Shown here: in pieces, positions 5,130-58,643 of the stretch | Position numbering within the stretch: the first letter of the stretch is position 1 | How the letters are laid out: each line of letters starts with the position of its first letter | Source: an uncultured bacterium | Lineage (GTDB): Bacteria; Patescibacteriota; Minisyncoccia; Phycocordibacterales; GWA1-40-21 | Assembly: GCA_963798465.1 (NCBI GenBank) | Contig: CAWCTC010000001.1 | Coordinates: 528,465 to 592,464, forward strand | Length of the DNA: 64,000 bases | Reading direction: 5' to 3' | The notes under the pieces: model-generated | Told to the model about the DNA's origin: nothing | What the model saw: the letters and a program-made list of their open reading frames with translations, nothing else | The model's database searches: none | Program-made: the position numbers and the translations under genes

Positions 5130-6581
5130 TTATATGAAATTTATTGCGTTTTTGATTCTTTTTATCGATTCATTCTTGCCCAAAAGAAATAGCAATGTGA
5201 AAGGGTCCGGGGATTTTTCTTTTCCGGATAATGCGACACGAAGTGGCCAAAGAACATTGCCTTTTCCTTTTTCTTCAGCAAATTTCATCAAATTTTCCTT
5301 TATTATTTCCAGAGTGAAATCCTTATCTGAAATTTTGTTCAAAATATCTGTAACTAGCGACAGGTTTTCCTTGGCTTGTTCCAATGTTCCGCCTTTTTTC
5401 CAAACAATCATTTCTTTTGACAATTTTGGCTCTTCAAAAAAATATTGGATATCACCGTCGAGAACCATCTTGTCTATATCTGAAAAAACATTTATTCTTT
5501 CTGCAATTGTATCAGAAATTTTTCCAATTATTTTTTCATCTTGGCAATTTTCCGGAAATCTTTTCTTTATTTCTTCGACAATTTTTTCTTTAGGTAATTT
5601 TTTGATGTATTCTTTATTAAACCACAATAATTTTTCCTCATTAAATTTACCGCCAGCAGACTGGATTTTATTTATATCAAAAGCTTCTATAATTTCTTTA
5701 ATGCTCATAATTTCTCTTTCATCTCCCGGATTCCATCCTATAAAAGCTAAAAAATTTATTATAGCTTCCGGAAGATAACCTTCGCTTTTATAATCTAGAA
5801 TATCTTTTGCTCCATCTCTCTTTCCAAGCTTTTTTTTGCCATCTGGCCCCATAATTGGAGGTAGCGTGGCAAATTCCGGTCTTGTTATACCAAGCGCTTC
5901 ATATAATGCTAAAAATTTTGGAGTTGATGATATAAATTCATCGGCACGAAATATATGAGTTACTCCCATATATAAATCATCAATAATATGCGCAAAATTG
6001 TAAGTCGGATATCCATCGCTTTTCATTAAAATAAAATCATCAAGAGCTTCCGGTCCAGCAGAAAGTTCGCCTCGAACTAAATCGTTCCATACATATCTTT
6101 TAATATCTATTATTTTTAGTCTGAGAGGTTTAGTTCCATCCCATTTTGGCGGATTTTCAGGTCTATGATCCCTGTAAAGAAAGGCCTTTTTGTCTTCATC
6201 GGATTTTTTTCTAAATGTTTCAAGTTCTTCTTCTGTGTATGGATCTGCATAAGCTAATCCCTTTTCATATAATTCTTGTGCATATTTTTTATAGGTTTCC
6301 AATCTTTGAGATTGAATATATGGTCCATTTGGTCCACCGATATCTGGGCCCTCATCCCAATTCAAACCAAGCCATTTTAAAGATTTAATTATATGTTCAA
6401 TAGATCCCTCAACTTCTCTTTTTTTATCGGTATCCTCAATTCTTAATATAAAAATGCCTTTATTTTTTTTAGCAAAAAGCCAAGAAAATAAAGCTGTTCT
6501 GACACCTCCAACATGCATAAATCCCGTCGGGCTCGGCGCAAATCTTGTAATTATTTTATTATTATTTTTCATTTTTGACAT
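5130..6581 (-). CDS. gltX: Glutamyl-tRNA synthetase
   Basis: 483 aa with class I motifs PSPTGFMHVGG (HIGH-type) and KLGKRDG (KMSKS-type). Confidence 0.95.
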   Translation of the reverse strand: MSKMKNNNKIITRFAPSPTGFMHVGGVRTALFSWLFAKKNKGIFILRIEDTDKKREVEGSIEHIIKSLKWLGLNWDEGPDIGGPNGPYIQSQRLETYKKYAQELYEKGLAYADPYTEEELETFRKKSDEDKKAFLYRDHRPENPPKWDGTKPLRLKIIDIKRYVWNDLVRGELSAGPEALDDFILMKSDGYPTYNFAHIIDDLYMGVTHIFRADEFISSTPKFLALYEALGITRPEFATLPPIMGPDGKKKLGKRDGAKDILDYKSEGYLPEAIINFLAFIGWNPGDEREIMSIKEIIEAFDINKIQSAGGKFNEEKLLWFNKEYIKKLPKEKIVEEIKKRFPENCQDEKIIGKISDTIAERINVFSDIDKMVLDGDIQYFFEEPKLSKEMIVWKKGGTLEQAKENLSLVTDILNKISDKDFTLEIIKENLMKFAEEKGKGNVLWPLRVALSGKEKSPDPFTLLFLLGKNESIKRIKNAINFI

Positions 6582-20527: not shown

Positions 20528-20541
20528 GATGTTTTTTGTAT

Positions 20542-20570
20542 GTCTTTGCGAGCGTAGCGAAGCAATCTAG
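20542..20570 (+). repeat. GTCAT-hairpin-CCAG module (A type), forward orientation; left arm flanking the GIY-YIG gene
   Basis: GTCTTTGCGAGCGTAGCGAAGCAATCTAG. Its end overlaps the GIY-YIG stop codon. Confidence 0.85.
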
Positions 20571-20857
20571 ATTTGATCAGTTAAATCATTCCATTCAGGA
20601 TTATTTTTTTCAATTAAATCTAGCTTTTTTCTTCTTGAACCCGCTTTTATTTGTTTTTCTCTTTCTATCGCACCTAACATTATCTCGCATGCTTCGTAAT
20701 ATACTAATGTATGAATGTTATATTTTTTTGTAAAACCATCGTTTTTATTTTCTTTATGCTCTTTTACTCTTCTCTTTAAATCAGAGGTTACTCCTGTATA
20801 TAATGTTCCATTTCTTTGACTTGCCATTATATAGATACATGGAATTTTGTCTTTCAT
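20567..20857 (-). CDS. Small stand-alone GIY-YIG nuclease (UPF0213/YhbQ-like)
   Basis: 96 aa with PCIYIMASQRNGTLYTGVTSDLKRRVKEHK (GIY..YIG-type block) and a conserved E in LGAIEREKQIK. It is inserted between dnaK and dnaJ. Confidence 0.85.
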   Translation of the reverse strand: MKDKIPCIYIMASQRNGTLYTGVTSDLKRRVKEHKENKNDGFTKKYNIHTLVYYEACEIMLGAIEREKQIKAGSRRKKLDLIEKNNPEWNDLTDQI

Positions 20858-20873
20858 AATTTTTCTATTTTCC

Positions 20874-20936
20874 CTGGATCACCACGCTTCGCTCGTGATG
20901 ACAAGCCTGGTTTGCTTCGCTTTCGCTCGCAATGAC
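20874..20936 (-). repeat. Two tandem GTCAT-hairpin-CCAG modules in reverse orientation (right arms flanking the GIY-YIG gene)
   Basis: CTGGATCACCACGCTTCGCTCGTGATGAC (20874-20902) and CTGGTTTGCTTCGCTTTCGCTCGCAATGAC (20907-20936). The second ends exactly at the dnaK stop codon. Confidence 0.85.
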
Positions 20937-22850: not shown

Positions 22851-22893
22851 AATTTTATTTTAATTAATTTTATATTTTATAAAAAATCACTTT

Positions 22894-23052
22894 GTCATTC
22901 CCGCGGATGCGGGAATCCAGGTTAAATTGTATGTCTTTGCGAGGAGTATAGTGACGAAGCAATCCAGAATTAGTAGCGTCGCACTTATAGGACGGTTGTG
23001 CGACGTGACTTCGCTAAGTCAACCTGGGTTGCCACGCTTCGCTCGCAATGAC
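22894..23052. repeat. Composite cluster of three hairpin modules plus an extra hairpin
   Basis: The parts are: 22894-22920 GTCATTCCCGCGGATGCGGGAATCCAG (B type, forward); 22933-22967 GTCTTTGCGAGG..GACGAAGCAATCCAG (A type, long loop, forward); hairpin GTCGCAC..GTGCGAC at 22978-23004; and 23024-23052 CTGGGTTGCCACGCTTCGCTCGCAATGAC (reverse). Confidence 0.8.
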
Positions 23053-23063
23053 AATACAAAAAA

Positions 23064-23363
23064 TTATAAATTAGGAGCTCTTGTTGGTTGTGCGACAACA
23101 AATGATAAATCTTTTACCAAACTTAATATATCTGCAAAAAACGGACTGACAATCGGCTTAAAAGTTTCCGTTTCAAAATAAACTGGCAGTGCGAGAACTT
23201 CTTCTTGAGTTATGACATTTTCTTCAATAAGTTTTCCACAAACTGCTTTGGCAGTTATTTTTCCATTTATTTCAGTCAATTCAAAAACAACCAAAGCCAA
23301 AGAACCATTTGGCAATGTTATGGTTTTCTTTATGAATTTAGATTGTTTTTGTAAAGCTAACAT
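23064..23363 (-). CDS. Hypothetical protein (99 aa)
   Basis: An ORF only, with no motif I recognise. It is co-oriented between dnaK and the 611-aa gene and is bounded by repeat modules. Confidence 0.45.
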   Translation of the reverse strand: MLALQKQSKFIKKTITLPNGSLALVVFELTEINGKITAKAVCGKLIEENVITQEEVLALPVYFETETFKPIVSPFFADILSLVKDLSFVVAQPTRAPNL

Positions 23364-23387
23364 ATATTTATTATAACAATATTATTT

Positions 23388-23445
23388 ATCTTTGCGAGCG
23401 AAGCGAAGCAATCCAGAACCTAGTTTGCTTCGCTTTGCTCGTAAG
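23388..23445. repeat. Head-to-head pair of A-type modules (right arm degenerate)
   Basis: ATCTTTGCGAGCGAAGCGAAGCAATCCAG-AAC-CTAGTTTGCTTCGCTTTGCTCGTAAG. Confidence 0.8.
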
Positions 23446-23560
23446 AAATTTTGGTCGCTCACATATTCACCTACTACCAAAATTAGTATATCAAAAAAAA
23501 TTTTAAGAACAAAGTTCTAAGTATCTAAGTACTAGATCTAAGTTACAAAAGAGATAAGTG

Positions 23561-25396: not shown

Positions 25397-25435
25397 ATGT
25401 TTATTATATCAAATTATTAATATATTTTATTTCTT

Positions 25436-25496
25436 GTCTTTGCGAGCGAAGCGAAGCAATCCAGAACCTAGTTTGCTTCGCTTCGCTCGCAATGAC
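25436..25496. repeat. Perfect head-to-head pair of A-type modules (60-nt palindrome)
   Basis: GTCTTTGCGAGCGAAGCGAAGCAATCCAG-AAC-CTAGTTTGCTTCGCTTCGCTCGCAATGAC. The 20-nt arms TTGCGAGCGAAGCGAAGCAA and TTGCTTCGCTTCGCTCGCAA are exact complements. It ends exactly at the grpE stop. Confidence 0.9.
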
Positions 25497-35676: not shown

Positions 35677-35714
35677 AAAAAAGGCGGGTTTCGCGAAGCG
35701 AAACCCGCCTTTTT
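35677..35714. terminator. Bidirectional rho-independent terminator
   Basis: AAAAAAGGCGGGTTTCGC-GAA-GCGAAACCCGCCTTTTT. Confidence 0.85.
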
Positions 35715-36299: not shown

Positions 36300-36307
36300 A
36301 TTTTTGT

Positions 36308-36380
36308 GTCATTCCCGCGGAGGTGGGAATCTATTCTTAAAAATTAATCAATGCTGGATTCCCACCTCCGCGGGAATGAC
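36308..36380. repeat. Head-to-head pair of B-type modules with 22-nt spacer
   Basis: GTCATTCCCGCGGAGGTGGGAATC ... CTGGATTCCCACCTCCGCGGGAATGAC. The 24-nt arms are exact complements, and each arm contains ATTCCC-N8-GGGAAT. Confidence 0.9.
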
Positions 36381-36394
36381 AATACAAAACGCAA

Positions 36395-38031: not shown

Positions 38032-39157
38032 CTAGCAGATTATTCCTCCGCCGAGGCAAATTTCCCCGTCATATATGACAGCGGATTGTCCGGAAGCAAT
38101 TGCCTTTTGCGGTTTTGTAAAATAGAGTTCAAATTCCGTATTTTCTTTTGACTTTATGGACTTTTGACTTTTGACTAATATGCATTCTTCAAGCGGCTGG
38201 CGATATCTGATTCTTGCGACATATTTTTTCGATAAATCCGGCATTTCTCCCAAAGTCCAATTCACTTTTTCCAGCTTTGCGATTTTTGATTCGCTTTCAG
38301 GTACTTTAGAAAAATTCTGCGAAACTGTAATCGTATTTTCTTTTATATTTTTTCCGATTATATAATATGGCGAATCGTTCGGTGTTTTTTCCGTGATTTT
38401 AAAACCATGCCTTTGCCCGACGGTCAAATAAAAAGCTCCGTCGTGTTCGCCGATTATTTCGCCTTTTTCATTCAAAACATTTCCTTTTTTTTCTTCAATA
38501 TAATTTTTGAGGAAATCTTTAATATCTATTTTCCCGATGAAGCAAAGTCCTTGGCTGTCTTTTTTTACAGCCGTGCTCAAACCATATTTTTTTGCCAAGC
38601 TTTCTGACTTCCGGCTTTTCAATTTCTCCAATCGGAAAAAGAATTTTTGAAAGCTGTTTCTGCGTTAGTGTCCAGAGAAAATATGTTTGATCTTTATTTT
38701 TGTCTTCACCGGCAAGCAATTTATACTTACTTAGAGGCCTTGCCTCTAAGTTACGAGCATAATGTCCCGTCGCAACAAAGTCAGCTCCTTGTTTCATCGC
38801 CCAATCAAAAAATCCTCCAAACTTTACATATTTATTGCACATAACGTCTGGATTCGGCGTCTTGCCTTTTTTATATTCTTCAATCATATAATCCACGACT
38901 TCTTTTTTATATTCAGCTTCAAGGTTTAAAGTTATGAAAGGAATATTTAATTTTGCGCAAACTCGCATCGCATCAAGTCTGTCGGCTCGCCAAGTGCACT
39001 CAAAGAATTCCGGTTGCCATACTTTTATAAAAACTCCAGTGACATCATAACCTTGTTCTTTAAGCAACGCAGCAGAAACAGAGCTATCAACTCCGCCAGA
39101 CATTCCGACATATGCTCTTGTCCTGCGTGAATTTTCACTTGGTTTTAAATTTAACAT
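38032..39157 (-). pseudogene. mnmA: tRNA 2-thiouridine synthase MnmA, frame broken by one extra base
   Basis: ORFs 38519..39157 (PP-loop VGMSGGVDSSVSA, ..DQTYFLW..) and 38032..38631 (..DSQGLCFIG.., ..ASGQSAVIYDGEICLGGGII) join if one G is removed (AAG CTT [G]GCA AAA). The span is 1126 nt. Confidence 0.88.
38730..38750. repeat. 21-nt GC-rich perfect palindrome inside the mnmA coding sequence
   Basis: CTTAGAGGC-CTT-GCCTCTAAG, read in frame as ..NLEARPLS... The same 21-mer occurs in ychF. Confidence 0.85.
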
Positions 39158-41023: not shown

Positions 41024-42172
41024 CTAGATTTTAAACTCGATTACATCTCCATCTTTAACAACGTATTCCTTTCCTTCTGTTCGGACCAAACCTTTTTCGC
41101 GAGCTGAGCCATAAGAGCCTGAAGCTAAAAGCTTGTCCCATTCAATCACTTCTGCACGAACAAATTTGGCTTCGAAGTCACCGTGAATTGCGGTTCCTGC
41201 TTTTGGTGCGGTCCAACCTTTTTTAATTGTCCATGCCCGAGTTTCATCTTCTCCGGTTGTAAAATATGTAATGAGTCCGAGTAAATTGTATCCAGCTTTT
41301 ATCAAGTCGTTTATTCCATCCTCACTTAGAGGCCTTGCCTCTAAGTTTTGAGAGGCAAGGCCTCTAAGTAAATCTTCTCCGACAAGTGCTTGTCTCATCT
41401 CATCTTTTTCTTTACCTTCAAAATCTTTAAGTTCTTGTTCAATACCGGCATCAACAACAACGTATTGCGATTTTGATTCTTTGAAAAAGTTCATTAACTT
41501 TTCCCATCTAGCATCTTTGAGTTCATCGAGATTTTTTCCGCCGGCTTTTTTATTTAAAATATAAAGAATAGGCTTCATCGTGATCAGACAAAGCTTGTTT
41601 ATTTCAACGATTTCTTTTTCATCAAGCGAAACTGTGCTTGAAAGCTGTCCGGCTTCGAGAGCAACTTTTATTTTTTCTGCAGCAGCATTTTCTATTATTG
41701 CAGTCTTGGTTCCCTTTTTAATTTCACTTCCCAAACTTGATAATCTTTTTGTGACAGTCTGAAGATCAGCAAGAATCAATTCAAGATTTATTGTTTCAAT
41801 ATCTGAAAGCGGTTCAACTTTATTTGAAACGTGAATTATATTTTCATCATCAAAAATTCTTACGACTTCGGCAATCGCATCTGTTTCTCTGATATTCGTA
41901 AGAAATTTATTTCCCAAACCTTCGCCTGTAGACGCACCTTTTACAAGCCCGGCAATATCTACAAACTCAACTGCCGCTGGAATCGTTTTCGCAGACTTTG
42001 AAAATTCTGCGAGCTTGAAAATTCTTTCATCAGGAACAGCAACAACGCCGACAGAAGGATCAATCGTCGCGAAAGGATAATTAGCCACGAGAACACTTTT
42101 TCTCGTGAGTGCATTGAATAAGGTTGATTTGCCTACGTTCGGCAATCCGACAATTCCGATTGATAAACTCAT
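41024..42172 (-). CDS. ychF: Ribosome-binding ATPase YchF/OLA1 with a ~16-aa palindrome-encoded insertion
   Basis: MSLSIGIVGLPNVGKSTLFNALT.., a C-terminal TGS-like block, and the extra segment LLRGLASQNLEARPLS. Confidence 0.93.
   Translation of the reverse strand: MSLSIGIVGLPNVGKSTLFNALTRKSVLVANYPFATIDPSVGVVAVPDERIFKLAEFSKSAKTIPAAVEFVDIAGLVKGASTGEGLGNKFLTNIRETDAIAEVVRIFDDENIIHVSNKVEPLSDIETINLELILADLQTVTKRLSSLGSEIKKGTKTAIIENAAAEKIKVALEAGQLSSTVSLDEKEIVEINKLCLITMKPILYILNKKAGGKNLDELKDARWEKLMNFFKESKSQYVVVDAGIEQELKDFEGKEKDEMRQALVGEDLLRGLASQNLEARPLSEDGINDLIKAGYNLLGLITYFTTGEDETRAWTIKKGWTAPKAGTAIHGDFEAKFVRAEVIEWDKLLASGSYGSAREKGLVRTEGKEYVVKDGDVIEFKI
41325..41368. repeat. Double copy of the GC-rich palindrome inside the ychF coding sequence
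   Basis: CTTAGAGGCCTTGCCTCT-AAGTTTTG-AGAGGCAAGGCCTCTAAG. The first 21 nt are identical to 38730-38750. Confidence 0.85.
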
Positions 42173-44049: not shown

Positions 44050-44104
44050 TTAATCTTTAATTTTTTACTAATATAATAACTGGATTTTCAATTAGTAATA
44101 CAAC

Positions 44105-44136
44105 AAAAAGGCGGGCCGTAAACGGCCCGCCTTTTT
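44105..44136. terminator. Rho-independent terminator after the giant surface-protein gene
   Basis: AAAAAGGCGGGCCG-TAAA-CGGCCCGCCTTTTT. Confidence 0.85.
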
Positions 44137-44172
44137 GCATTTCCCTGCTTAAGAAACTTTAAACTCTCAAAA

Positions 44173-47100
44173 TTATTTTGACATATTTCCTGTTGGAAGA
44201 TTTGTCGGAGCGCTTGGCGTTTTCGGACCACTCATCGGCGCTTTTGGAATATTTGGAGTCTTATTATTTTTTCTGTAGAAGAATATCAAACCTATCATAG
44301 CTATTAAGACAATTACTATCAAAGCTACCATCGGCTTGTTTGGAATATTTGAGAAACCTTCTGCAACGGCTGCGAACAATCCTGCATTATTAGTTGAAGT
44401 TGCAACTGATGATGTAGAATTTGTCGATGTCGCCAATGAAACTTGTTCATTGTTGCTTGTTGTAGCAGAAGAATTGAATTCTCCTACTCCTGCTGGAATC
44501 GTTATTCCTGTGTCTGGAGTTCCGGAAATTGCTTCAGATGTTCCTGTTGTATTTGCAATAGTTGTGGTTGATGCAACTGGTGCTGTTGAAACTATCGGAG
44601 TAACTGCATTTACGATAACTGTTCTTGTCGCAGATGAAGTGTTTCCGGCTTTATCAGATACTGAGTAAACTACTGAATATGTTCCTGGAACATTCATATT
44701 GATTGAACTTACAGCATTTATATTAGATGTAATATTTCCATCAACATTATCATTTGCTGTCGCTCCCGCATCTACATATGAATCGCCGACATTTATATTC
44801 GCTGGATTTGCTCCGAGAATTGTAATAACTGGCGCAACAATATCTTCTGAAGATGGTGTTGTATTTGTAAATGTAGGTGTTGGAATAACTCCTGATGCTG
44901 TTGAACCTCCGTTGACGGGATTAACTACTGGTGCTGCGACAACATTTACTGTTCTTATAGCTGTTGCAACATTTTCTGCTGCATCGCTTGAAGTGTAAGT
45001 TATTGTATACGTAGCAACTACGGTTGTATCAACCGTTCCTGAAGTTGTTACTGTTGTTGAGGTTGCATCAAACGCATCATAAGCTGTTGCGCCTGCATCT
45101 GTGTATAGATTTCCAACTGTAACATTTACTGGGTTTGAACCAAGAATCGTGATTACCGGTGGAACTGTATCTTCTGTAACAACATTATTTACTGTAACTG
45201 CATAATTTGCTGTGAATGATCCAACTGTTACCGTCAAAACTTCATTTGGATTTGCAACTGAAGAATCAAATCCTGAAATGTTTGAATCACTGATATCATT
45301 AATTGTTGAAGTTGAATTATCTGAATATGTTCCTGTAACTATCATTCCTGTGATATCAACCGCTGAATCACCAACTGTGTAAACTGTTTTGGTTGGCAGA
45401 GTTGTGATTGCGATTGATTTTAATGTTGGAGCTGGAATTGAACCTGAACTTACAGAAATCGTGTAGGTTGCTGTTTTTCCACTAACATTAATTGTAAGAG
45501 TTTCGCTTGAAGTTGCAGCCGAAGAATCAAATCCTGAAATGTTTGAATCACTGATATCATTAATTGTTGAAGTTGAATTATCTGAATATGTTCCTGTAAC
45601 TATCATTCCTGTGATATCAACCGCTGAATCACCAACTGTGTAAACTGTTTTGGTTGGCAGAGTTGTGATTGCGATGCTTGATAGTGTTGGAGCTGGAATT
45701 GGGTTTGAATTAACTGTAACTGTTACTGTAGCTGATATTGTTGTTGATCCAGCTGTTCCTGTAATAACAGTTGTTCCTGTTGCAGAAGCTGTAAACAAAC
45801 CGCTTGCATCTATATTACCAACTGAAGTATCTGAGCTAGACCAAGTTACTGAAGCATTTATTGGATTACCAAATTGATCAGAAGTTGAAGCTGTGAATTG
45901 TGTAGTTGAACCAACTGACAATGTTAATGGTGAAGCTGAAATAGTAATTGATGATACGACTGGAGTTGGATCTGAAAAATCTGAAACTGTAACCGTTACT
46001 GTAGCTGATATTGTTGTTGATCCAGCTGTTCCTGTAATAACAGTTGTTCCTGTTGCAGAAGCTGTAAACAAACCAGTTGAATCTATATTACCAACTGAAG
46101 TATCTGAACTAGACCAAGTTACTGCTGCAGAAATTGGATTATTATTTTGATCCAAAGTTATTGCTGTGAATTGTGTTGTTGAACCGACTGACAATGTTAA
46201 TGGTGAAGCTGAAATACTAATTGATGATACGACTGGAGTTGGAACACTTCCATTAATCACAACCGTATAAGTTGCTGTTTTTCCGCTGACTGTAATTGTC
46301 AAAACTTCATTTGGGTTTGCAACTGAAGAATTAAATCCAGAAATGTTTGAATCACTGATATCATTAATTGTTGAAGTTGAATTATCTGAATATGTTCCTG
46401 TAACTATCATTCCTGTGATATCAACCGCTGAATCACCAACTGTGTAAACTGTTTTGGTTGGCAGAGTTGTGATTGCGATTGATTTTAATGTTGGAGCTGG
46501 AATTGAACCTGAACTTACAGAAATCGTGTAGGTTGCTGTTTTTCCACTAACATTAATTGTAAGAGTTTCGCTTGAAGTTGCAGCCGAAGAATCAAATCCT
46601 GAAATGTTTGAATCACTGATATCATTAATTGTTGAAGTTGAATTATCTGAATATGTTCCTGTAACTACCAATCCTGTTATATCAAGTGAATCACCAACTG
46701 TGTAAACTGTTTTTGTTGCTGGTGAGGTGATTGCGATTGATTGCAATGTTGGTGCTGGAGGAATGGCTGCAAAATTTGCAGTGACTGTAATATCTCCGGC
46801 TACTGCTAGATCAGTTCTTGTTGCTGTAAGAACTCCGTCGCTCCAATTTGAGAATTGGAATCCAAAATTTGGAAATGCTGTTACTGATGTTCCATTTGCA
46901 CCAGAGGCAACAACTTGAGTTGAAGATCCTGTTATAGAACCGTTACCATCAGTTGTGTAAGTAAGTGTAAATGAAGCTGGAGTTCCAATTGAACTTATTT
47001 CTGTTGGAACTGTAATCGTTGTAGTTGTTCCATTTATTGTAATAGTACCGCTATCAATCATGCCGTTCAAAATTACTGCATTAGTTGTTGTTGCATTTAC

Positions 47101-50100
47101 AAGAACTGTTCCTGTAATTGTTGAACCTGAATCAACTACGTTTGTAAGTGTTGAACTTGCAACTGTTGAGCCCGTAAGATTTGAATTCGTTGAAGTTGAA
47201 TCTGATATGACAACATTATTTAATACTGAATTTACAAGATCACTGTTTGTTGAAGTTGAATTTGTAAGTTGTGAATTATCAAGTGTTGAGAGAGTTACAG
47301 AACTTGATGCAACATTTGAACCATTGCTAATAGTTGAAGTTGCGATAGTGCTCAATGTTATTGTTGAAGCATCTATCGTTGAACCAGAGACAGTTGAAGT
47401 CGCAACATAAGAATGATTTGAAACTGTTGTGTAGTAAATATTTGATGCATAAATTTGTGAGTTTGTACTTGTTGAATGAATAAACTTATACAAAGTTAAT
47501 GGATCAATTGTTGAATATGCAATATAACAATCTGTTGCAAAATAATTTTCTACATCAGAATTTAATATAGTACATCTTGCAATGTCATCATTTGATAAAG
47601 TTGAGTTTGTAGAAACAACTTGATCAAGGTTTGTATCATCAACGGTTGTGTTTGTAACTGTTGAATTATTTACATTCCAGAATGTTGAAAGTGTTGAGTT
47701 TGTGATTGTTGTTGTTCCTGTTGTTGTTGCAATTGGAGCAAGCAAAGATTCTGCAAGTGATGGTGAATACAAGCTGTAGAAGATTCCTCCCATAGTTGAA
47801 TTCGTTATCATAACTTGTGAATCAGAAACTATGAATGGTCCATAACTTGTAGTTGTTGAAATATTTCCAGCATTATCTATTGCTGCAACATGGAACCAAA
47901 GGGTGCCAAAACCAGAATCAGTAGTTGTTGTGGCAGTTGTTGTTGAAACTCCAACTGTTCCTGTAACTATTTGAGTTGCGTTTGAATTATCCCAAAGGTA
48001 TTCATATCCGGCCAATCCAGATTCTGAATCTATTGAATTCGTCCATGAAATATTTGCTGAAGCGATTATCGTACCTGTTGCACTTGCATTTGTAATGACA
48101 GGTGTTGTTGGTGCGGTCGTATCAGGAATTACTACATTTGAAACAATAACTGTTCTTGTCGCTGTTGCAACATTTCCTGCTGCATCGCTTGAAGTGTAAG
48201 TAATTGTATATGAACCGATAGTATTTACATTAACTGTTCCAGTTGCTGTAACTGCTGTCGATGTTCCATCGTATGCATCGAACGCTGTTGCGCCTGCATC
48301 AATGTAAAAATCACCGACAAATATATTAGTTGGATTTGCTCCAAGAATTGTTATTACTGGCGCAATCGTATCAGGAATAATTACATTTGAAACTGTAACA
48401 GTTGTTGAAGCTGAAAATGCTCCAGCTGTTCCAGTTATTGTAGTTGTTCCGGCAGAAAGTCCGATGAACAATCCGCTTGCATCTATCATACCGACAGATG
48501 AGTTTGAACTAATCCAAGTTGTTGTAGCTGGGAATGGATTTCCAAATTGATCTTTTGTTGTTGAAGTAAATGTTGTTGTTGCTCCAACTAATATATTTGG
48601 ATTTAATGGTGCAATGCTGATTGAAGCAAGTGCTGGTGGAATAACTGCATTGTTTACACTTATCGTATAAGTTGCAGTTGATGTTCCAACTGTGATTGTC
48701 AAAACTTCATTTGGGTTTGCAACTAAAGAATTGAATCCTGAAATGTTTGAAACATTTATTGGTTCTGTTGAAGTTGAACCGTCAGAATATGTTCCTGTGA
48801 CAACAAGTCCAGTGATATCAAGTGCGTCGCCGACTGTGTAAACTGTTTTGTTTGCTGGAGTCGTGATTGCAATTGATTGCAATGTTGGAGTTGAAGTTGC
48901 AGCAGATACTGTTACAAGAGTTGTAATCGGCATGAGTGAACCTGCTGATGCAGTTATCTCAGTTGTTCCAATTGAACTTGCTGTAAATATTCCGTTCGCA
49001 TCAATTGTTCCGACAGCATTATTTGTGTTTGACCAAGTTGTGGTCGTTGCAAATGGCTGACCAAATTGATCCAAAGTTGTTGAGACAAAAGTTATTTGTT
49101 CTCCAACTGTAACTGATGGATTTAGCGGTGAAATACTCATTGATGTAAGTACTGCTGGAACAGCGCTGACTACAACTTCTCTTGAAATTGTAGAAACATT
49201 TCCGGATAAATCTGAAGAAATGTAATTTACCGTATATATACCGACATTATTGGTATTAACAGTTCCAAATATGGTAACTGGTCTTACTCCGTCAACCAAG
49301 TCGGTTGAAGAAGCTCCCTGTTCTACATATGTATTTCCTACGGATAGATCAAGGACAGCTGGTCCTATCAAGGACATTGCTGGTCCTGTTGTGTCCTTTA
49401 TAACAACCAGAGACGTAGCGGTTGCAACATTTCCTGAAAGATCTGTTGCTGTCCAAATAACTGTTGAAGTTCCAAGTCCGAATCCTGCTGGATTATAGGT
49501 AATAATTGGGCTTGTACTTGAGTTATCTGTTGCTGTAGCCTGTACTAATACTGGCGTTGTTGTTGTTCCTGTTGCTTCAAATACTTGAGTAGCTGGAACT
49601 GAAATGACAGGAGCTATTGTATCTACAACATTTACTATTCTTGTAGCTGTTGCAACATTTCCTGCTAGATCTACTGAAGTATAATCTACTGCATATGTTC
49701 CCAAAACTGAAGTATTTACTGAACTTGATGCTGTAAATGTAAGTGGAACTCCTGAATTATCAGTAACACTGACACCTGCATCTGTATAAAGCGTATTTAT
49801 TTGAACATTGGCGGGATTTGATCCAAGTATTGTTATAACTGGAGCAATCTTATCAATATTTGAAATTGTAATTGTCCTTGATGAGAAGTTTCCTGCTACA
49901 TCCGTTGCTGTGAACGTAACTGTTCCGTTGTTTGAGAAATCAGCTGTTGATGTTGCACCTGAATTTATTATTGAAGCTATTGTAGAAGTTCCTACAATAT
50001 TTCCTTCATTTGTAGTTGCAGTAACTATGACATCTTGATTTGTTGATGAAGTTGCATATGGAAGCACTGTAATTATTGGTGCGACTTTATCAATGTTTGA

Positions 50101-51270
50101 AATTGTAATTGTCCTTGATGAGAAGTTTCCTGCTGCATCTGTAGCTGTGAACGTAACTGTTCCGTTGTTTGAGAAATCAGCTGTTGATGTTGCACCATTG
50201 TTTGCAATTGAAGCAATAGTAGAAACACCTACAATATTTCCTTCATTTGTAGTTGCAGTAACTATGACATCTTGATTTGTTGATGAAGTTGCATATGGAA
50301 GTACTGTAATTATTGGCGCAACTTTATCAATATTTGAAATTGTAATTGTTTTTGAAGAAACATTTCCTGCTGCATCTGTAGCTGTAAATGTGACTGTGCC
50401 ATTATCTGAAAATGTAGCTGATGATGTTGCTCCTGAAGTTACTATGCTAGCTGATGATGAAGATGCAATTATTGTTCCTTCATTTGTAACTGCTGTAACT
50501 GTAACATTTTGATTTGTTGATGAAGTTGCATATGGAAGAATTGTAATGACTGGGGCTGTAAGATCTGCTCCGAAAGAAACAATTATAATACCATTTCCTC
50601 CGATTGCTCCGGCATCACCCAAATTTCCATTTGAGTTCAACCATCCGCTTCCTGCTCCACCACCGGCACCTCTTACTCCAGCTGTTGGAGCTGTGTACGA
50701 AGTAGCACTTCCTGTGCTTCCCTGACCTGAGATTCCAATGGCAGTTGTTCCACCATTTCCTCCGTAGGTTCTTGATCCGAGATTGCTTGCACCATTGGTT
50801 CCGTTTGTTCCACCGATACCACCGGCAAAACCACCGACACCGTTTCCAATGCCAGCTGTTGCACCTTGTCCGCCGAATCCTCCGTTAGCAACAACAGAAG
50901 ATCCGAAAGATGTTGATCCTCCGTTTCCTCCGTTTCCTGCTGCAACAGTTAAAGATCCAGCTGTACCTGCAGTACCTGCTGTTCCAATTGTGTAAGGAAT
51001 TATTTGTCCTGGAGTAACAGGAATAGTTGCTATCTTAACAGCTCCTGCTCCTCCTCCGCCACCACCGTATGTGTAGGCTCCGCCCGCTCCGCCTCCTCCG
51101 GCACCGATTGTTTCTACCGTAACGCTAGTTACACCAGCTGGTACGGTAAAATTTCCGCTTTTCAAAAGAGTTGTCGTAGCTGAATAATCAGCAAACGCAA
51201 CTGATCCGAAAGACAGAACGCCAAGGAAGACGACGATGAGGGCGCTTATTGTTCTAGTAATATTTTTCAT
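44173..51270 (-). CDS. Giant (2365 aa) cell-surface protein: signal peptide, glycine-rich N-terminal domain, many Ig-like repeats, C-terminal TM anchor
   Basis: Signal peptide MKNITRTISALIVVFLGVLSFGSVAFA. Residues ~50-230 are rich in GGxGG runs. Repeated modules include APVITILG.NP..V..G..Y.DAGA (HYR/DUF5011-like), ..SSDTSVGNID.TGLFTA.ATGTT.ITGT (Big_2-like) and LQSIAIT..KTVYTVGD.LDITG..VTGTYSD. The C-terminus has a TM helix, ALIVIVLIAMIGLIFFY, and a short basic tail. Confidence 0.9.
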   Translation of the reverse strand: MKNITRTISALIVVFLGVLSFGSVAFADYSATTTLLKSGNFTVPAGVTSVTVETIGAGGGGAGGAYTYGGGGGGAGAVKIATIPVTPGQIIPYTIGTAGTAGTAGSLTVAAGNGGNGGSTSFGSSVVANGGFGGQGATAGIGNGVGGFAGGIGGTNGTNGASNLGSRTYGGNGGTTAIGISGQGSTGSATSYTAPTAGVRGAGGGAGSGWLNSNGNLGDAGAIGGNGIIIVSFGADLTAPVITILPYATSSTNQNVTVTAVTNEGTIIASSSSASIVTSGATSSATFSDNGTVTFTATDAAGNVSSKTITISNIDKVAPIITVLPYATSSTNQDVIVTATTNEGNIVGVSTIASIANNGATSTADFSNNGTVTFTATDAAGNFSSRTITISNIDKVAPIITVLPYATSSTNQDVIVTATTNEGNIVGTSTIASIINSGATSTADFSNNGTVTFTATDVAGNFSSRTITISNIDKIAPVITILGSNPANVQINTLYTDAGVSVTDNSGVPLTFTASSSVNTSVLGTYAVDYTSVDLAGNVATATRIVNVVDTIAPVISVPATQVFEATGTTTTPVLVQATATDNSSTSPIITYNPAGFGLGTSTVIWTATDLSGNVATATSLVVIKDTTGPAMSLIGPAVLDLSVGNTYVEQGASSTDLVDGVRPVTIFGTVNTNNVGIYTVNYISSDLSGNVSTISREVVVSAVPAVLTSMSISPLNPSVTVGEQITFVSTTLDQFGQPFATTTTWSNTNNAVGTIDANGIFTASSIGTTEITASAGSLMPITTLVTVSAATSTPTLQSIAITTPANKTVYTVGDALDITGLVVTGTYSDGSTSTEPINVSNISGFNSLVANPNEVLTITVGTSTATYTISVNNAVIPPALASISIAPLNPNILVGATTTFTSTTKDQFGNPFPATTTWISSNSSVGMIDASGLFIGLSAGTTTITGTAGAFSASTTVTVSNVIIPDTIAPVITILGANPTNIFVGDFYIDAGATAFDAYDGTSTAVTATGTVNVNTIGSYTITYTSSDAAGNVATATRTVIVSNVVIPDTTAPTTPVITNASATGTIIASANISWTNSIDSESGLAGYEYLWDNSNATQIVTGTVGVSTTTATTTTDSGFGTLWFHVAAIDNAGNISTTTSYGPFIVSDSQVMITNSTMGGIFYSLYSPSLAESLLAPIATTTGTTTITNSTLSTFWNVNNSTVTNTTVDDTNLDQVVSTNSTLSNDDIARCTILNSDVENYFATDCYIAYSTIDPLTLYKFIHSTSTNSQIYASNIYYTTVSNHSYVATSTVSGSTIDASTITLSTIATSTISNGSNVASSSVTLSTLDNSQLTNSTSTNSDLVNSVLNNVVISDSTSTNSNLTGSTVASSTLTNVVDSGSTITGTVLVNATTTNAVILNGMIDSGTITINGTTTTITVPTEISSIGTPASFTLTYTTDGNGSITGSSTQVVASGANGTSVTAFPNFGFQFSNWSDGVLTATRTDLAVAGDITVTANFAAIPPAPTLQSIAITSPATKTVYTVGDSLDITGLVVTGTYSDNSTSTINDISDSNISGFDSSAATSSETLTINVSGKTATYTISVSSGSIPAPTLKSIAITTLPTKTVYTVGDSAVDITGMIVTGTYSDNSTSTINDISDSNISGFNSSVANPNEVLTITVSGKTATYTVVINGSVPTPVVSSISISASPLTLSVGSTTQFTAITLDQNNNPISAAVTWSSSDTSVGNIDSTGLFTASATGTTVITGTAGSTTISATVTVTVSDFSDPTPVVSSITISASPLTLSVGSTTQFTASTSDQFGNPINASVTWSSSDTSVGNIDASGLFTASATGTTVITGTAGSTTISATVTVTVNSNPIPAPTLSSIAITTLPTKTVYTVGDSAVDITGMIVTGTYSDNSTSTINDISDSNISGFDSSAATSSETLTINVSGKTATYTISVSSGSIPAPTLKSIAITTLPTKTVYTVGDSAVDITGMIVTGTYSDNSTSTINDISDSNISGFDSSVANPNEVLTVTVGSFTANYAVTVNNVVTEDTVPPVITILGSNPVNVTVGNLYTDAGATAYDAFDATSTTVTTSGTVDTTVVATYTITYTSSDAAENVATAIRTVNVVAAPVVNPVNGGSTASGVIPTPTFTNTTPSSEDIVAPVITILGANPANINVGDSYVDAGATANDNVDGNITSNINAVSSINMNVPGTYSVVYSVSDKAGNTSSATRTVIVNAVTPIVSTAPVASTTTIANTTGTSEAISGTPDTGITIPAGVGEFNSSATTSNNEQVSLATSTNSTSSVATSTNNAGLFAAVAEGFSNIPNKPMVALIVIVLIAMIGLIFFYRKNNKTPNIPKAPMSGPKTPSAPTNLPTGNMSK
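45266..46710 (-). repeat. Near-identical intragenic DNA repeats (four ~260-bp units plus a ~250-bp pair) within the giant gene
   Basis: The string ..AATCCTGAAATGTTTGAATCACTGATATCATTAATTGTTGAAGTTGAATTATCTGAATATGTTCCTGTAAC.. recurs starting near 45266, 45527, 46333 and 46590. The blocks 45700-45890 and 45960-46140 are also near-identical. Confidence 0.85.
49850..50560 (-). repeat. Three tandem 237-bp (79-codon) repeats within the giant gene
   Basis: Unit starts TTATCAAT(A/G)TTTGAAATTGTAATTGT lie at 49850, 50087 and 50324. They encode DKVAPIITVLPYATSSTNQDVIVTATTNEGNIVG..TFTATDAAGN.SS.TITISNI. Confidence 0.9.
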
Positions 51271-57453: not shown

Positions 57454-57525
57454 TCGGAGCGCCGGGATTTGAACCCGGAGTCACATGAACCCGAATCATG
57501 CATGTTACCGTTACACTACGCTCCG
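57454..57525 (-). tRNA. tRNA-Pro (anticodon CGG)
   Basis: Hand-folded cloverleaf: CGGAGCG/CGCTCCG acceptor, GTGT/ACAT D stem, CATGA-TTCGGGT-TCATG anticodon arm, CCGGG-TTCAAAT-CCCGG T arm. CCA is not encoded. Confidence 0.9.
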
Positions 57526-57675
57526 ATATTTTTCTTGTGGTCACAAATAAAATTACTGACGTAATTTTTTCGCGACCTCGGCTCACCATTTTTGCCTTTG
57601 CTTCGCTAAACAAAAATATGGCTGCGCCTTCCACAAGATCATAAAATCTAAAGCAGTTTAGATTTTATGATCTTG
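57526..57675 (-). repeat. Family D element downstream of tRNA-Ala(CGC)
   Basis: A 50-nt hairpin (57630-57679) starts inside the tRNA 3' end (TCCACAAGATCATAAAATCTAAA-loop-TTTAGATTTTATGATCTTGTGGA). Conserved stems follow, then GGTCGCG..GTCA-loop hairpin..TGTGACC, and it ends in CCACAAG, a 7-nt copy of the tRNA 3' end. Confidence 0.7.
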
Positions 57676-57746
57676 TGGACCTAGGCAGAATCGGACTGCC
57701 GTCTCGTCAATGCGAATGACGCGTTCTACCACTGTACTATAGGCCC
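57676..57746 (-). tRNA. tRNA-Ala (anticodon CGC)
   Basis: GGGCCTA/TAGGTCC acceptor with G3:U70, anticodon arm CGTCA-TTCGCAT-TGACG, T arm GGCAG-TCCGATT-CTGCC; 71 nt. Confidence 0.88.
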
Positions 57747-57898
57747 AATTTTATTGTGGTCCCGAATAAATTTCCTGACGGAAATTTTTCTTGACCATGA
57801 CTTGCGGTTTTTGCCTTTCGCTTTGCTCAAACAAAAACATCGCTCCGTCTTCCACATAGTAGATAAAATCTGCAGTAGTGCAGATTTTATCTACTATG
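57747..57898 (-). repeat. Family D element downstream of tRNA-Ala(GGC)
   Basis: A 52-nt perfect hairpin (57851-57902) includes the tRNA 3' end. It is collinear with the 57526-57675 element, and the substitutions are compensatory in two stems (GCG..CGC vs CCA..TGG; TTTCC-GTCA-GGAAA vs ATTAC-GTCA-GTAAT). Confidence 0.7.
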
Positions 57899-57971
57899 TG
57901 GACCACACCGGGATCGAACCGGTCGCCTCTTCCATGCCATGGAAACGCTCTACCAAATGAGCTAGCGGCCC
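57899..57971 (-). tRNA. tRNA-Ala (anticodon GGC)
   Basis: GGGCCGC/GTGGTCC acceptor with G3:U70, anticodon arm TTTCC-ATGGCAT-GGAAG, T arm ACCGG-TTCGATC-CCGGT; 73 nt. Confidence 0.9.
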
Positions 57972-58097
57972 TTTGCGCCAAGTGAGTATATTATAAAAAA
58001 TCATAAAAATCAAAAATAGAATAATAAAAAAAATTATGTTATAAAGTAATCGTGCACGGGCGATTAGCTCAGTTGGTTAGAGCATACGATTCATTCA

Positions 58098-58214
58098 CCC
58101 GAGAAAATTTTTGGACATTTAGCTCAGTTGGTTAGAGCATGCGATTCACATTCGCAAGGTCACAGGTTCGAATCCTGTAATGTCCACACATCATCGTCCA
58201 AAAACTTTAACGGG
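58098..58214 (+). repeat. MITE-like element, family C, copy 4: the same inverted termini, but the interior is tRNA-Val
   Basis: CCCGAGAAAATTTTTGGAC ... GTCCAAAAACTTTAACGGG. The termini can pair over 19 positions with 3 mismatches. Confidence 0.75.
58113..58186 (+). tRNA. tRNA-Val (anticodon CAC), nested inside the interrupted tRNA
   Basis: GGACATT/AATGTCC acceptor, GCTC/GAGC D stem, TGCGA-TTCACAT-TCGCA anticodon arm, ACAGG-TTCGAAT-CCTGT T arm; 74 nt. Confidence 0.9.
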
Positions 58215-58254
58215 CAAGTTCGTAAGGTCACAAGTTCGATTCTTGTATCGCCCA

Positions 58255-58486
58255 CAGACAAAAAACAAGATGAATATGAATACTTGCAATATTCAGCTGT
58301 TTTTGGCTGGGTGATACAAGAATCGAAAGATCGGAAGTAATTTTTTCAGCAGAAAAAATTACTGAGTCGTGGTCGCGAAAAATTTCGAGCAACCTAATTT
58401 TCTTGAGCGAAGCGATTAGAAAATGGGAGTACTCTTGTGGTAGACGGCGAGAAAATTATTTGTGACCGATTCTTGTATCGCCCACA
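58255..58486 (+). repeat. Family D element downstream of the interrupted tRNA, with inverted and direct copies of its 3' end
   Basis: The direct repeat CGATTCTTGTATCGCCCACA occurs at 58237-58256 and 58467-58486. An inverted copy, TGGGTGATACAAGAATCGAA, lies at 58308-58327. GGTCGCG (58368) and TGTGACC (58461) are shared with the 57526 element. The last 75 nt form a tRNA-length 'ghost' starting AAGCGATTAG (the real tRNA starts GGGCGATTAG). Confidence 0.7.
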
Positions 58487-58570
58487 AAAATATAAAAAGT
58501 CCAGTGATTCAAATATGGGCATTAAAAAGGCTTGGAAAAATATATTCTTTATGCTAATCTTTTATCCACT

Positions 58571-58643
58571 GGGCCTGTAGCTCATCTGGTAGAGCACCTC
58601 ATTTGCAATGAGGGGGTAAGCGGTTCGAGTCCGCTCAGGTCCA
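58571..58643 (+). tRNA. tRNA-Ala (anticodon UGC)
   Basis: GGGCCTG/CAGGTCC acceptor with G3:U70, anticodon arm CCTCA-TTTGCAA-TGAGG, T arm AGCGG-TTCGAGT-CCGCT; 73 nt. Confidence 0.92.

Follow-up and report, generated by a model that had tools for sequence, protein, structure and literature searches.

REP- and REPIN-like hairpin units within the ychF and mnmA genes of a Patescibacteria genome, and a related hairpin family around Y1 transposase genes

A 64,000-nt stretch of the genome of an uncultured member of the Patescibacteria (contig CAWCTC010000001.1, positions 528,465 to 592,464; hereafter the window) carries short GC-rich palindromic sequences inside two genes, ychF and mnmA. We consider it probable (about 0.75) that the sequence in mnmA is a single repetitive extragenic palindrome (REP) and that in ychF an inverted doublet resembling a REPIN (REP doublet forming hairpin), both being members of a probably mobile Patescibacteria family associated with REP-associated tyrosine transposases (RAYTs). 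In related genomes, judging from sequence, the hairpin and a transposase of the Y1/HUH type (RAYT/IS200 superfamily) form what can be called a 'REPtron', because the hairpins flank the Y1 transposase gene in the pattern that defines REP/RAYT pairs.

Hairpin units in ychF and mnmA

The 21-mer CTTAGAGGCCTTGCCTCTAAG, read directly from the window at 41325-41345, is the core of the first of two units in ychF (unit A; Table 1). It is followed at 41348-41368 by its inverted copy, with 2 mismatches at the inner end, where unit B is degenerate and has TTGAG in place of CTTAG. As a preliminary description of this DNA had reported, the same 21-mer is found in mnmA (38730-38750); the identity extends in fact to 24 nt (mnmA 38729-38752 and ychF 41324-41347; ACTTAGAGGCCTTGCCTCTAAGTT). 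The two 18-nt arms of the ychF doublet, described there as exact complements, proved to be so on direct reading, and with the flanking A/T added they make a perfect stem of 19 bp with a loop of 8 nt. That each arm is itself palindromic is true only in a loose sense, since a single unit is an imperfect palindrome with a stem of 9-10 bp and a 3-nt loop (CTT or AAG).

A 15-mer was matched three times, whereas 100 shuffles of the window averaged 0.04 matches and never reached three, and the 21-mer pattern was matched in no shuffle. Folded as single-stranded DNA, the ychF doublet reaches -22.5 kcal/mol (z = -8.5) and a single unit -9.4 kcal/mol (z = -6.0). The window holds 3 units at 2 loci in 64 kb, every one of them intragenic. 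They have the form expected of a REP, a short (about 20-40 nt) imperfect palindrome with a stable stem-loop, and the ychF doublet (loops CTT and AAG) has that of a REPIN, in which two inverted REPs fold into one long hairpin.

Other types of element were considered and rejected: an intrinsic terminator, as the hairpins are not called in the terminator scan and the coding strand has no T-run 3' of them; a CRISPR array, as the spacing is not regular; an intein or intron, as the element is far too short and is translated through; and a MITE (a miniature transposable element with inverted repeats), as there are neither terminal inverted repeats nor target-site duplications. A scan of the whole window against Rfam returned 5 tRNAs only, the hairpins matching no family.

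An in-frame insert in YchF

Translation of the minus strand reads ...EDLLRGLASQNLEARPLSEDG... across the ychF doublet, in agreement with the preliminary description, which took it for some 16 residues absent from other YchF proteins. An insertion it is, although of 17 residues (51 nt). The closest orthologues (365 aa, 87-90% identity) lack exactly these residues, and alignment with the DNA of three of these relatives leaves a clean 51-nt gap between ...AAAGAT and GACGG..., the boundaries being ambiguous by a few nucleotides with GAT on both sides. HMMER alignment of the solved YchF structures 1jal and 8kie gives the same 17-residue gap, between ...LQDL and GIEEPGLNRVIRAGY. The orthologue alignment that had been proposed as a check therefore comes out in favour of an insertion, and a conserved protein motif was rejected since the insert is missing from the nearest orthologues.

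The inserted residues fall between the final pair of G-domain helices, just ahead of the C-terminal domain. An AlphaFold2 model of mediocre quality (mean predicted local distance difference test score, pLDDT, 63; G domain poor) indicates no more than that the insert (residues 265-283) is of low confidence, at pLDDT <50, and is situated between two helices. The predicted tryptic peptides at the insert are GLASQNLEAR and PLSEDGINDLIK. Insertion in frame within genes, the characteristic of Rickettsia palindromic elements (RPEs), is observed here: the 51-nt insert keeps the ychF frame and MnmA is intact in an independent assembly (see below).

Comparison of the filled site with the empty site of the nearest relative (locus L037) reveals no clear duplication; the GAT on each side is compatible with chance. 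Between the two genes (window 41024-42172; L037 6001-7098) nucleotide identity falls to 62-83% in a tract of about 350 nt centred on the insert, versus 90-98% outside it. From this pattern, the segment bearing the insert was probably exchanged by homologous recombination, or else it has evolved faster locally; because the insert sits in this divergent tract, its arrival in the present lineage through homologous recombination appears as likely as de novo insertion. Two 'alleles' of the segment, DLEGKDKxEMREGLG and DFEGxEKxEMRxAL plus insert, are distributed patchily among otherwise near-identical YchF proteins (P0034, P0075), which suggests recombination within the gene.

The mnmA unit and an independent assembly

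The GHY...KDQ segment of MnmA has 21 residues in the window versus the canonical 19 (53 of 120 relatives); therefore the mnmA unit, as far as segment length tells, replaces the tip of a hairpin loop and is not a clean addition. In the window the gene is split by a frameshift (Table 1). A 374-aa MnmA from the Logan collection (P0241) is 100% identical to the frameshift-corrected reading, NLEARPLS included, and the split is most likely an assembly error in the homopolymer or a population polymorphism. An exact-sequence look-up of the truncated mnmA open reading frame (ORF) gave no record.

The Logan assembly of run ERR11594402 has a 6,162-nt contig with an identical 382-aa YchF and identical DNA across the insert; the 374-aa MnmA of the same collection is also on a 6,162-nt contig. 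The reservation in the preliminary description that the shared 21-mer might be an artefact of assembly is largely answered by these sequences. Its argument that shared repeat DNA, not protein convergence, links the two genes is likewise sustained by the 24-nt identity, which includes synonymous positions, and by the existence of a hairpin family with a Y1 transposase (below); the peptides LRGLAS and LEARPL are identical DNA read in two different frames.

Repeated occupation of the same two sites

Judged from the relatives, the ychF and mnmA positions are recurrent insertion sites. At locus L055 (YchF 81% identical) a doublet of a variant hairpin occupies the same ychF position (CTTGGAAGC-TCA/TAA-GCTTCCAAG) and another doublet the same mnmA position (CTTGGAGGT-TCA/TGA-ACCTCCAAG; loops TCA and TGA), and in both the stem changes are compensated. 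The ychF gene of L054 holds a collinear, AT-decayed relic in which the codons TTA...CTT...TCN CAA AAY TTA...GAT are kept, and in other YchF relatives this site is filled by unrelated inserts of 5-18 aa. Among 119 MnmA relatives scored, the GHY...KDQ segment is non-canonical (not 19 aa) in 66, many of which have clear inserts from several palindromic families, REP variants included (P0245, P0251, P0260, P0270, P0272, P0300, P0316). The best reading is that both loops are permissive and also collect other palindromic inserts in relatives. The preliminary description had spoken of recent insertion or gene conversion. The absence of the insert from the nearest orthologues agrees with this, but 'recent' is not established, given the recurrent sites and the divergent ychF tract; what is established is the uniformity of the copies in the window genome and their membership of a repeat family.

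Two further observations concern these loops. In the nearest relative, L037, an insert of 22 aa follows GHYSR in the mnmA loop. Its DNA, CAAAAGTCTATAAAGTCAAAAG (L037 7475-7496), is a near-copy of a 3' segment of mnmA encoding SQKSIKSK (1 mismatch to window 38145-38166) and itself belongs to an AT-rich inverted repeat; the similarity suggests that duplication or conversion within the gene filled the same permissive loop. In addition, YchF relatives P0018, P0034, P0091, P0100, P0106, P0110, P0111, P0115 and P0116 have other short inserts at 3-4 further loop positions (alignment columns 183-306). These are often rich in Gly, Ser, Ala or Pro (PARPDFMGG, SAQGGSASGG, PVGTNGSLEPTSNRASEL) and probably derive from other palindromic repeat families.

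A hairpin family nearly restricted to Patescibacteria

When 185,579 species genomes (one per GTDB species, 596 Gb) were scanned with CTTAGAGGCNNNGCCTCTAAG, 51 sites at 36 loci were returned. Some 46 of the sites are in metagenome-assembled genomes (MAGs) of Patescibacteria (Paceibacteria, Yanofsky-, Kaiser-, Vogel- and 'Saccharibacteria'), the remaining matches, about five, being all single. By our own estimate roughly nine matches are expected by chance in 596 Gb, a number that fits the scattered matches outside these Candidate Phyla Radiation (CPR) bacteria and not those within them. The motif CTTAGAGGC-NNN-GCCTCTAAG is nearly restricted to Patescibacteria genomes.

The loop triplet is constant within each genome, in both orientations, and different between genomes. 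The general form of the family is A-CTTRG-N4-N3-N4'-CYAAG-T, with the conserved ends CTTRG and CYAAG base-paired. Across 22 units, a set taken partly from a scan that requires a hairpin and hence biased towards pairing, pairing holds in 96% of stem cells, and compensatory double changes occur in 6 of the 10 stem pairs. The CTTAG at both ends opens two reading frames, CTT-AGA... (LRGxASK) and C-TTA-GAG... (xLEAxPLS), the third reading TAG; since the stem is self-complementary, there are two stop-free frames on both strands. In-frame copies were confirmed with Pfam in GuaA, the type II secretion system E (T2SS-E) ATPase, a class II aminoacyl-tRNA synthetase, PheT, UvrD, MnmA, ArgS, UvrC, UvrB and PurH, and in other genomes roughly one copy in three falls within an ORF of at least 280 codons. 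The copies in pheT of L004 and L018 were considered as a case of very deep conservation; this was dropped, as the two PheT proteins are very alike by eye (identity not computed).

Association with a Y1 transposase

Clusters of four copies surround an ORF of about 215 aa that passes the Pfam Y1_Tnp threshold (PF01797, 33-34 bits versus a cut-off of 23). A Y1_Tnp homologue is present within the retrieved locus in 10 of the 36 genome loci; of the 12 metagenome loci bearing the exact 21-mer, 3 have one. The sole NCBIfam match is REP_Tyr_transpos, far below its cut-off; on its profile matches the transposase belongs to the Y1 superfamily and not to the curated RayT equivalog. The motifs NHxH and Y-x-N-L-N are invariant in the alignment. 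At E <= 1e-10 the family comprises 3,854 proteins, and those with names among the best 120 are mostly from Patescibacteria; some homologues carry the JGI label 'REP element-mobilizing transposase RayT'.

The same architecture is found at loci picked by protein homology alone (L056, L057 and L058): one hairpin stands about 40 nt upstream of the gene, the gene itself contains two in frame, and a fourth is at its 3' end, with stems specific to each locus (CTTGGAAAT, CTTGGCGGC and CTTAGGTGC). Including these three, the pattern of one upstream, two internal and one 3'-end hairpin is seen at L001, L009, L011, L013, L032, L044, L050, L056, L057 and L058. The internal hairpins occupy conserved positions, at about aa 60 and about aa 155; the second is flanked by the conserved SAY(V/I)NLN stretch on one side and the SSW motif on the other. 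The peptides at these two sites co-vary: among 120 homologues they have 5.06 of 7 positions identical within a protein versus 3.32 of 7 between proteins (0 of 2000 permutations). In L056 and L057 the RAYT-like gene has a conserved map-ruvX neighbourhood, as expected if the RAYT is vertically inherited.

A side observation concerns L057. At 5554-5994, the map-ruvX position that holds the RAYT in L056, there are small ORFs and three hairpins of the L056 type (CTTGGAAAT/C). The segment looks like a decayed RAYT, and an intact second RAYT with a different hairpin lies 4 kb away, an arrangement that suggests turnover of RAYT/REP pairs.

Table 1. Coordinates of the genes and hairpin units discussed in the text (window positions unless a locus is named)
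Feature	Coordinates	Strand	Remarks
ychF CDS (coding sequence)	41024..42172	-	382 aa; MMR_HSR1 and YchF-GTPase_C domains
In-frame insert in ychF	41321..41371	-	51 nt (17 codons); encodes LLRGLASQNLEARPLSE; measured against closest orthologues and solved structures
REP-like unit A in ychF	41324..41346		A-CTTAGAGGC-CTT-GCCTCTAAG-T; 10-bp stem, 3-nt loop; minus (coding) strand reads N-LEARPLS
REP-like unit B in ychF	41347..41369		inverted relative to unit A; loop AAG on + strand; coding strand reads LRGLAS(Q)
REPIN-like inverted doublet in ychF	41324..41369		19-bp perfect stem, 8-nt loop; two inverted 21-23-nt units
mnmA CDS	38032..39157	-	reading frame broken in the window at an A7 run (38587-38593; frameshift)
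Single REP-like unit in mnmA	38729..38752		coding strand reads NLEARPLS, immediately 3' of GHYAR motif
RAYT-like gene with four own-genome hairpins	L001 1481-2257		
RAYT-like gene with four own-genome hairpins	L009 921-1724		
RAYT-like gene with four own-genome hairpins	L056 9965-10675		
RAYT-like gene with four own-genome hairpins	L057 9965-10471		
RAYT-like gene with four own-genome hairpins	L058 7431-8133		

Origin of the hairpins

We infer that the hairpins are mobilised by the RAYT, on the analogy of E. coli TnpA-REP and IS608 TnpA. The transposase would bind the folded single-stranded hairpin and cut and rejoin at its foot, and such cutting and joining would disperse both single units and inverted doublets (REPINs). 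Where the genome is compact, genes would receive many of the insertions, and the survivors would be only those that keep the frame, are read in a stop-free frame (LRGxASK or xLEAxPLS) and fall in surface loops. The ychF and mnmA loops would be permissive or preferred sites, their reuse reflecting a target preference of the enzyme, the permissiveness of the loop, or both. The ychF allele itself may come from the recombination tract of about 350 nt rather than from fresh transposition.

Several points weigh against a RAYT-associated mobile family. The apparent copy number is low, as the count in the window indicates, whereas classical REPs number in hundreds, and the 20-kb RAYT loci L056-L058 are without dispersed copies. 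The 5' tag is CTTRG, not GTAG or CGTC, and the transposases score 19-31 bits against the NCBIfam RayT equivalog NF047646, whose cut-off is 80. No RAYT was detected in the 64-kb window (tblastn with two RAYT proteins, best E = 0.23), nor was one from the window's own 733-kb contig found among the best 120 of the 3,854 matches. The covariation of the stems is to be read with the bias of the 22-unit set in mind. Cleavage and transposition by members of the family are predicted by analogy, and, given the reuse of the sites and the divergent ychF tract, recombination or conversion could account for this one copy without recent transposition.

A variant of the RAYT reading is that the REP-RAYT pair, other than an ordinary selfish repeat, is here a vertically inherited system working inside coding sequences. 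Hairpins at fixed sites in essential genes and within the transposase gene would be held complementary, and uniform across the genome, by replacement at sites already occupied, through cutting and rejoining by the transposase, and might serve the host, for example at replication forks or in the pacing of translation. The co-variation within RAYT genes, the compensated stems of L055 at ychF and mnmA and the map-ruvX synteny are compatible with such a system, which we nevertheless regard as doubtful.

It is unlikely that the hairpins were spread and homogenised by homologous recombination or gene conversion only, the transposase gene being a mere favoured harbour. The divergent tract centred on the ychF insert, the patchy segment alleles in P0034 and P0075, the L037 mnmA loop with its copy of a segment from the gene's own 3' region and the low copy number are all in line with such a history. 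However, 21-24 nt is a short length for a recombination substrate, the hairpin is present in at least 10 unrelated genes, and the conserved four-hairpin architecture around the Y1 transposase, with its genome-specific stems, matches the defining REPtron pattern.

Selection by the host, for a protein-binding site or for an mRNA structure slowing translation at a domain boundary, would account for compensatory changes that keep the stems complementary, for the occupation of the same sites in relatives and for the location of the ychF insert just before the C-terminal domain. That the hairpin is such a host motif and not selfish DNA is nonetheless very unlikely: the closest relatives are entirely without the insert, others have decayed or unrelated inserts at the same sites, the hairpins have neither an Rfam match nor a terminator signature, and the host genes share nothing. 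Finally, an assembly or chimera artefact, or a convergent conserved protein motif, is extremely improbable despite the one probable assembly error in the window (the A7 frameshift), as the Logan assembly has the identical 382-aa YchF and a 374-aa MnmA with NLEARPLS, the reading frame is preserved, the family occurs in dozens of independent MAGs and the 24-nt DNA identity coexists with two different reading frames.

Comparison with known repeat systems

REPs, REPINs, RAYTs and intragenic REPs have been described (PMC3116915, PMC3337134, PMC3733652, PMC6006769), REP/REPIN-RAYT pairs by Bertels & Rainey 2011 (PMC3116915), and Di Nocera et al. 2013 (PMC3733652) had earlier reported REPs inside uvr genes and genes for tRNA synthetases. 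The family described here resembles these systems in its short GC-rich imperfect palindromes, in the presence of singlets and of inverted doublets folding into longer hairpins, in sequences specific to each genome, and in copies that flank a Y1/HUH tyrosine transposase gene with a conserved neighbourhood (map-ruvX). It differs from them in its lineage, the Patescibacteria; in a foot tag, CTTRG, which is within the stem and is not the tetranucleotide GTAG/CGTC; in low copy number and a large in-frame intragenic share, the copies in 64 kb being neither numerous nor mostly extragenic; in the two in-frame copies at conserved positions inside the transposase gene itself; and in proteins that score below the NCBIfam RayT equivalog cut-off. 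The doublet spacer is also very short (2-8 nt), far below that of Pseudomonas REPINs. Accounts of REP/REPIN-RAYT systems are reportedly also to be found in Nunvar 2010 and Ton-Hoang 2012. In the literature searched, no link of RAYT or REPIN with Patescibacteria was found.

In-frame palindromic repeats in genes are also known as the RPEs of Rickettsia (Ogata et al. 2000, as cited in PMC3733652). The likeness lies in in-frame palindromic repeats that typically add surface peptides to genes still functional, the function being predicted in the present case. The units here are of 21-24 nt, with a doublet of 46 nt, and RPEs, which are not known to have an associated transposase, probably belong to unrelated sequence families and occur in an alphaproteobacterial endosymbiont. 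RPE-1 is much longer, on the order of 100-150 bp. With IS200/IS605 elements and palindrome-associated transposable elements (PATEs) there is in common a Y1 HUH transposase, a presumed recognition of single-stranded subterminal hairpins and a target-site duplication neither expected nor seen; unlike IS200/IS605, the element is a bare hairpin of about 23 nt or a doublet, without left and right ends enclosing a cargo, and in the loci seen the transposase gene does not itself occur in multiple copies. MITEs (Correia/NEMIS, RUP, ERIC, Nezha) are likewise small non-autonomous repeats that can form hairpins and occasionally occur in genes, but their length of 70-300 bp, terminal inverted repeats, target-site duplications and DDE transposases are missing here. 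Intragenic REPs and Rickettsia RPEs are therefore already known; what is unusual is the occurrence in Patescibacteria, the foot CTTRG, the small number of copies, their high intragenic share and the in-frame copies inside the transposase gene.

For the window itself, the RAYT-associated reading is mainly an explanation, not a new mechanism. It would extend to the CPR a biology, that of REP/REPIN-RAYT systems, worked out mainly in Proteobacteria. CPR genomes, very small and densely packed, leave little room between genes, and repeats end up translated; odd GC-rich peptide inserts in CPR housekeeping proteins (LRGxASK, LEAxPLS, LGSSTPK and similar) would be explained in this way, and such inserts can mislead alignment, annotation and structure prediction. 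A transposase with its own in-frame, co-varying hairpins also offers a natural system for the co-evolution of Y1 transposases and their hairpins.

Other repeats and features of the window

Two further palindromic families are present between genes. One, GC-rich (...TTGCGAGCGAAGCGAAGCAATCCAG / CTAGTTTGCTTCGCTTCGCTCGCAATGAC...), lies at 20532-20571, 20871-20902, 23021-23069, 23371-23448 and 25424-25496, all between ORFs. The other, TTGTCATTCCCGCGGA(T/G)G(C/T)GGGAATCCAG, is intergenic at 22892-22920 and 36307-36382, and a perfect 25-nt inverted pair is found at 36307-36381. Strong GC-rich hairpins with A and T runs (AAAAAGGCGGG...CCCGCCTTTTT) stand at gene ends (35678-35714 and 44104-44137) and are ordinary bidirectional structures resembling intrinsic terminators. 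A cluster of five tRNAs occupies 57454-58643, with perfect 23-24-nt inverted repeats (TCCACA...TGTGGA) between the minus-strand tRNAs at 57630-57679 and 57851-57902. From 44600 to 50600 runs a long coding region that is repetitive internally, its units being of 237-300 nt; in relatives (L038) the syntenic region codes for a large surface protein that carries Big_2 / Ig-like repeats.

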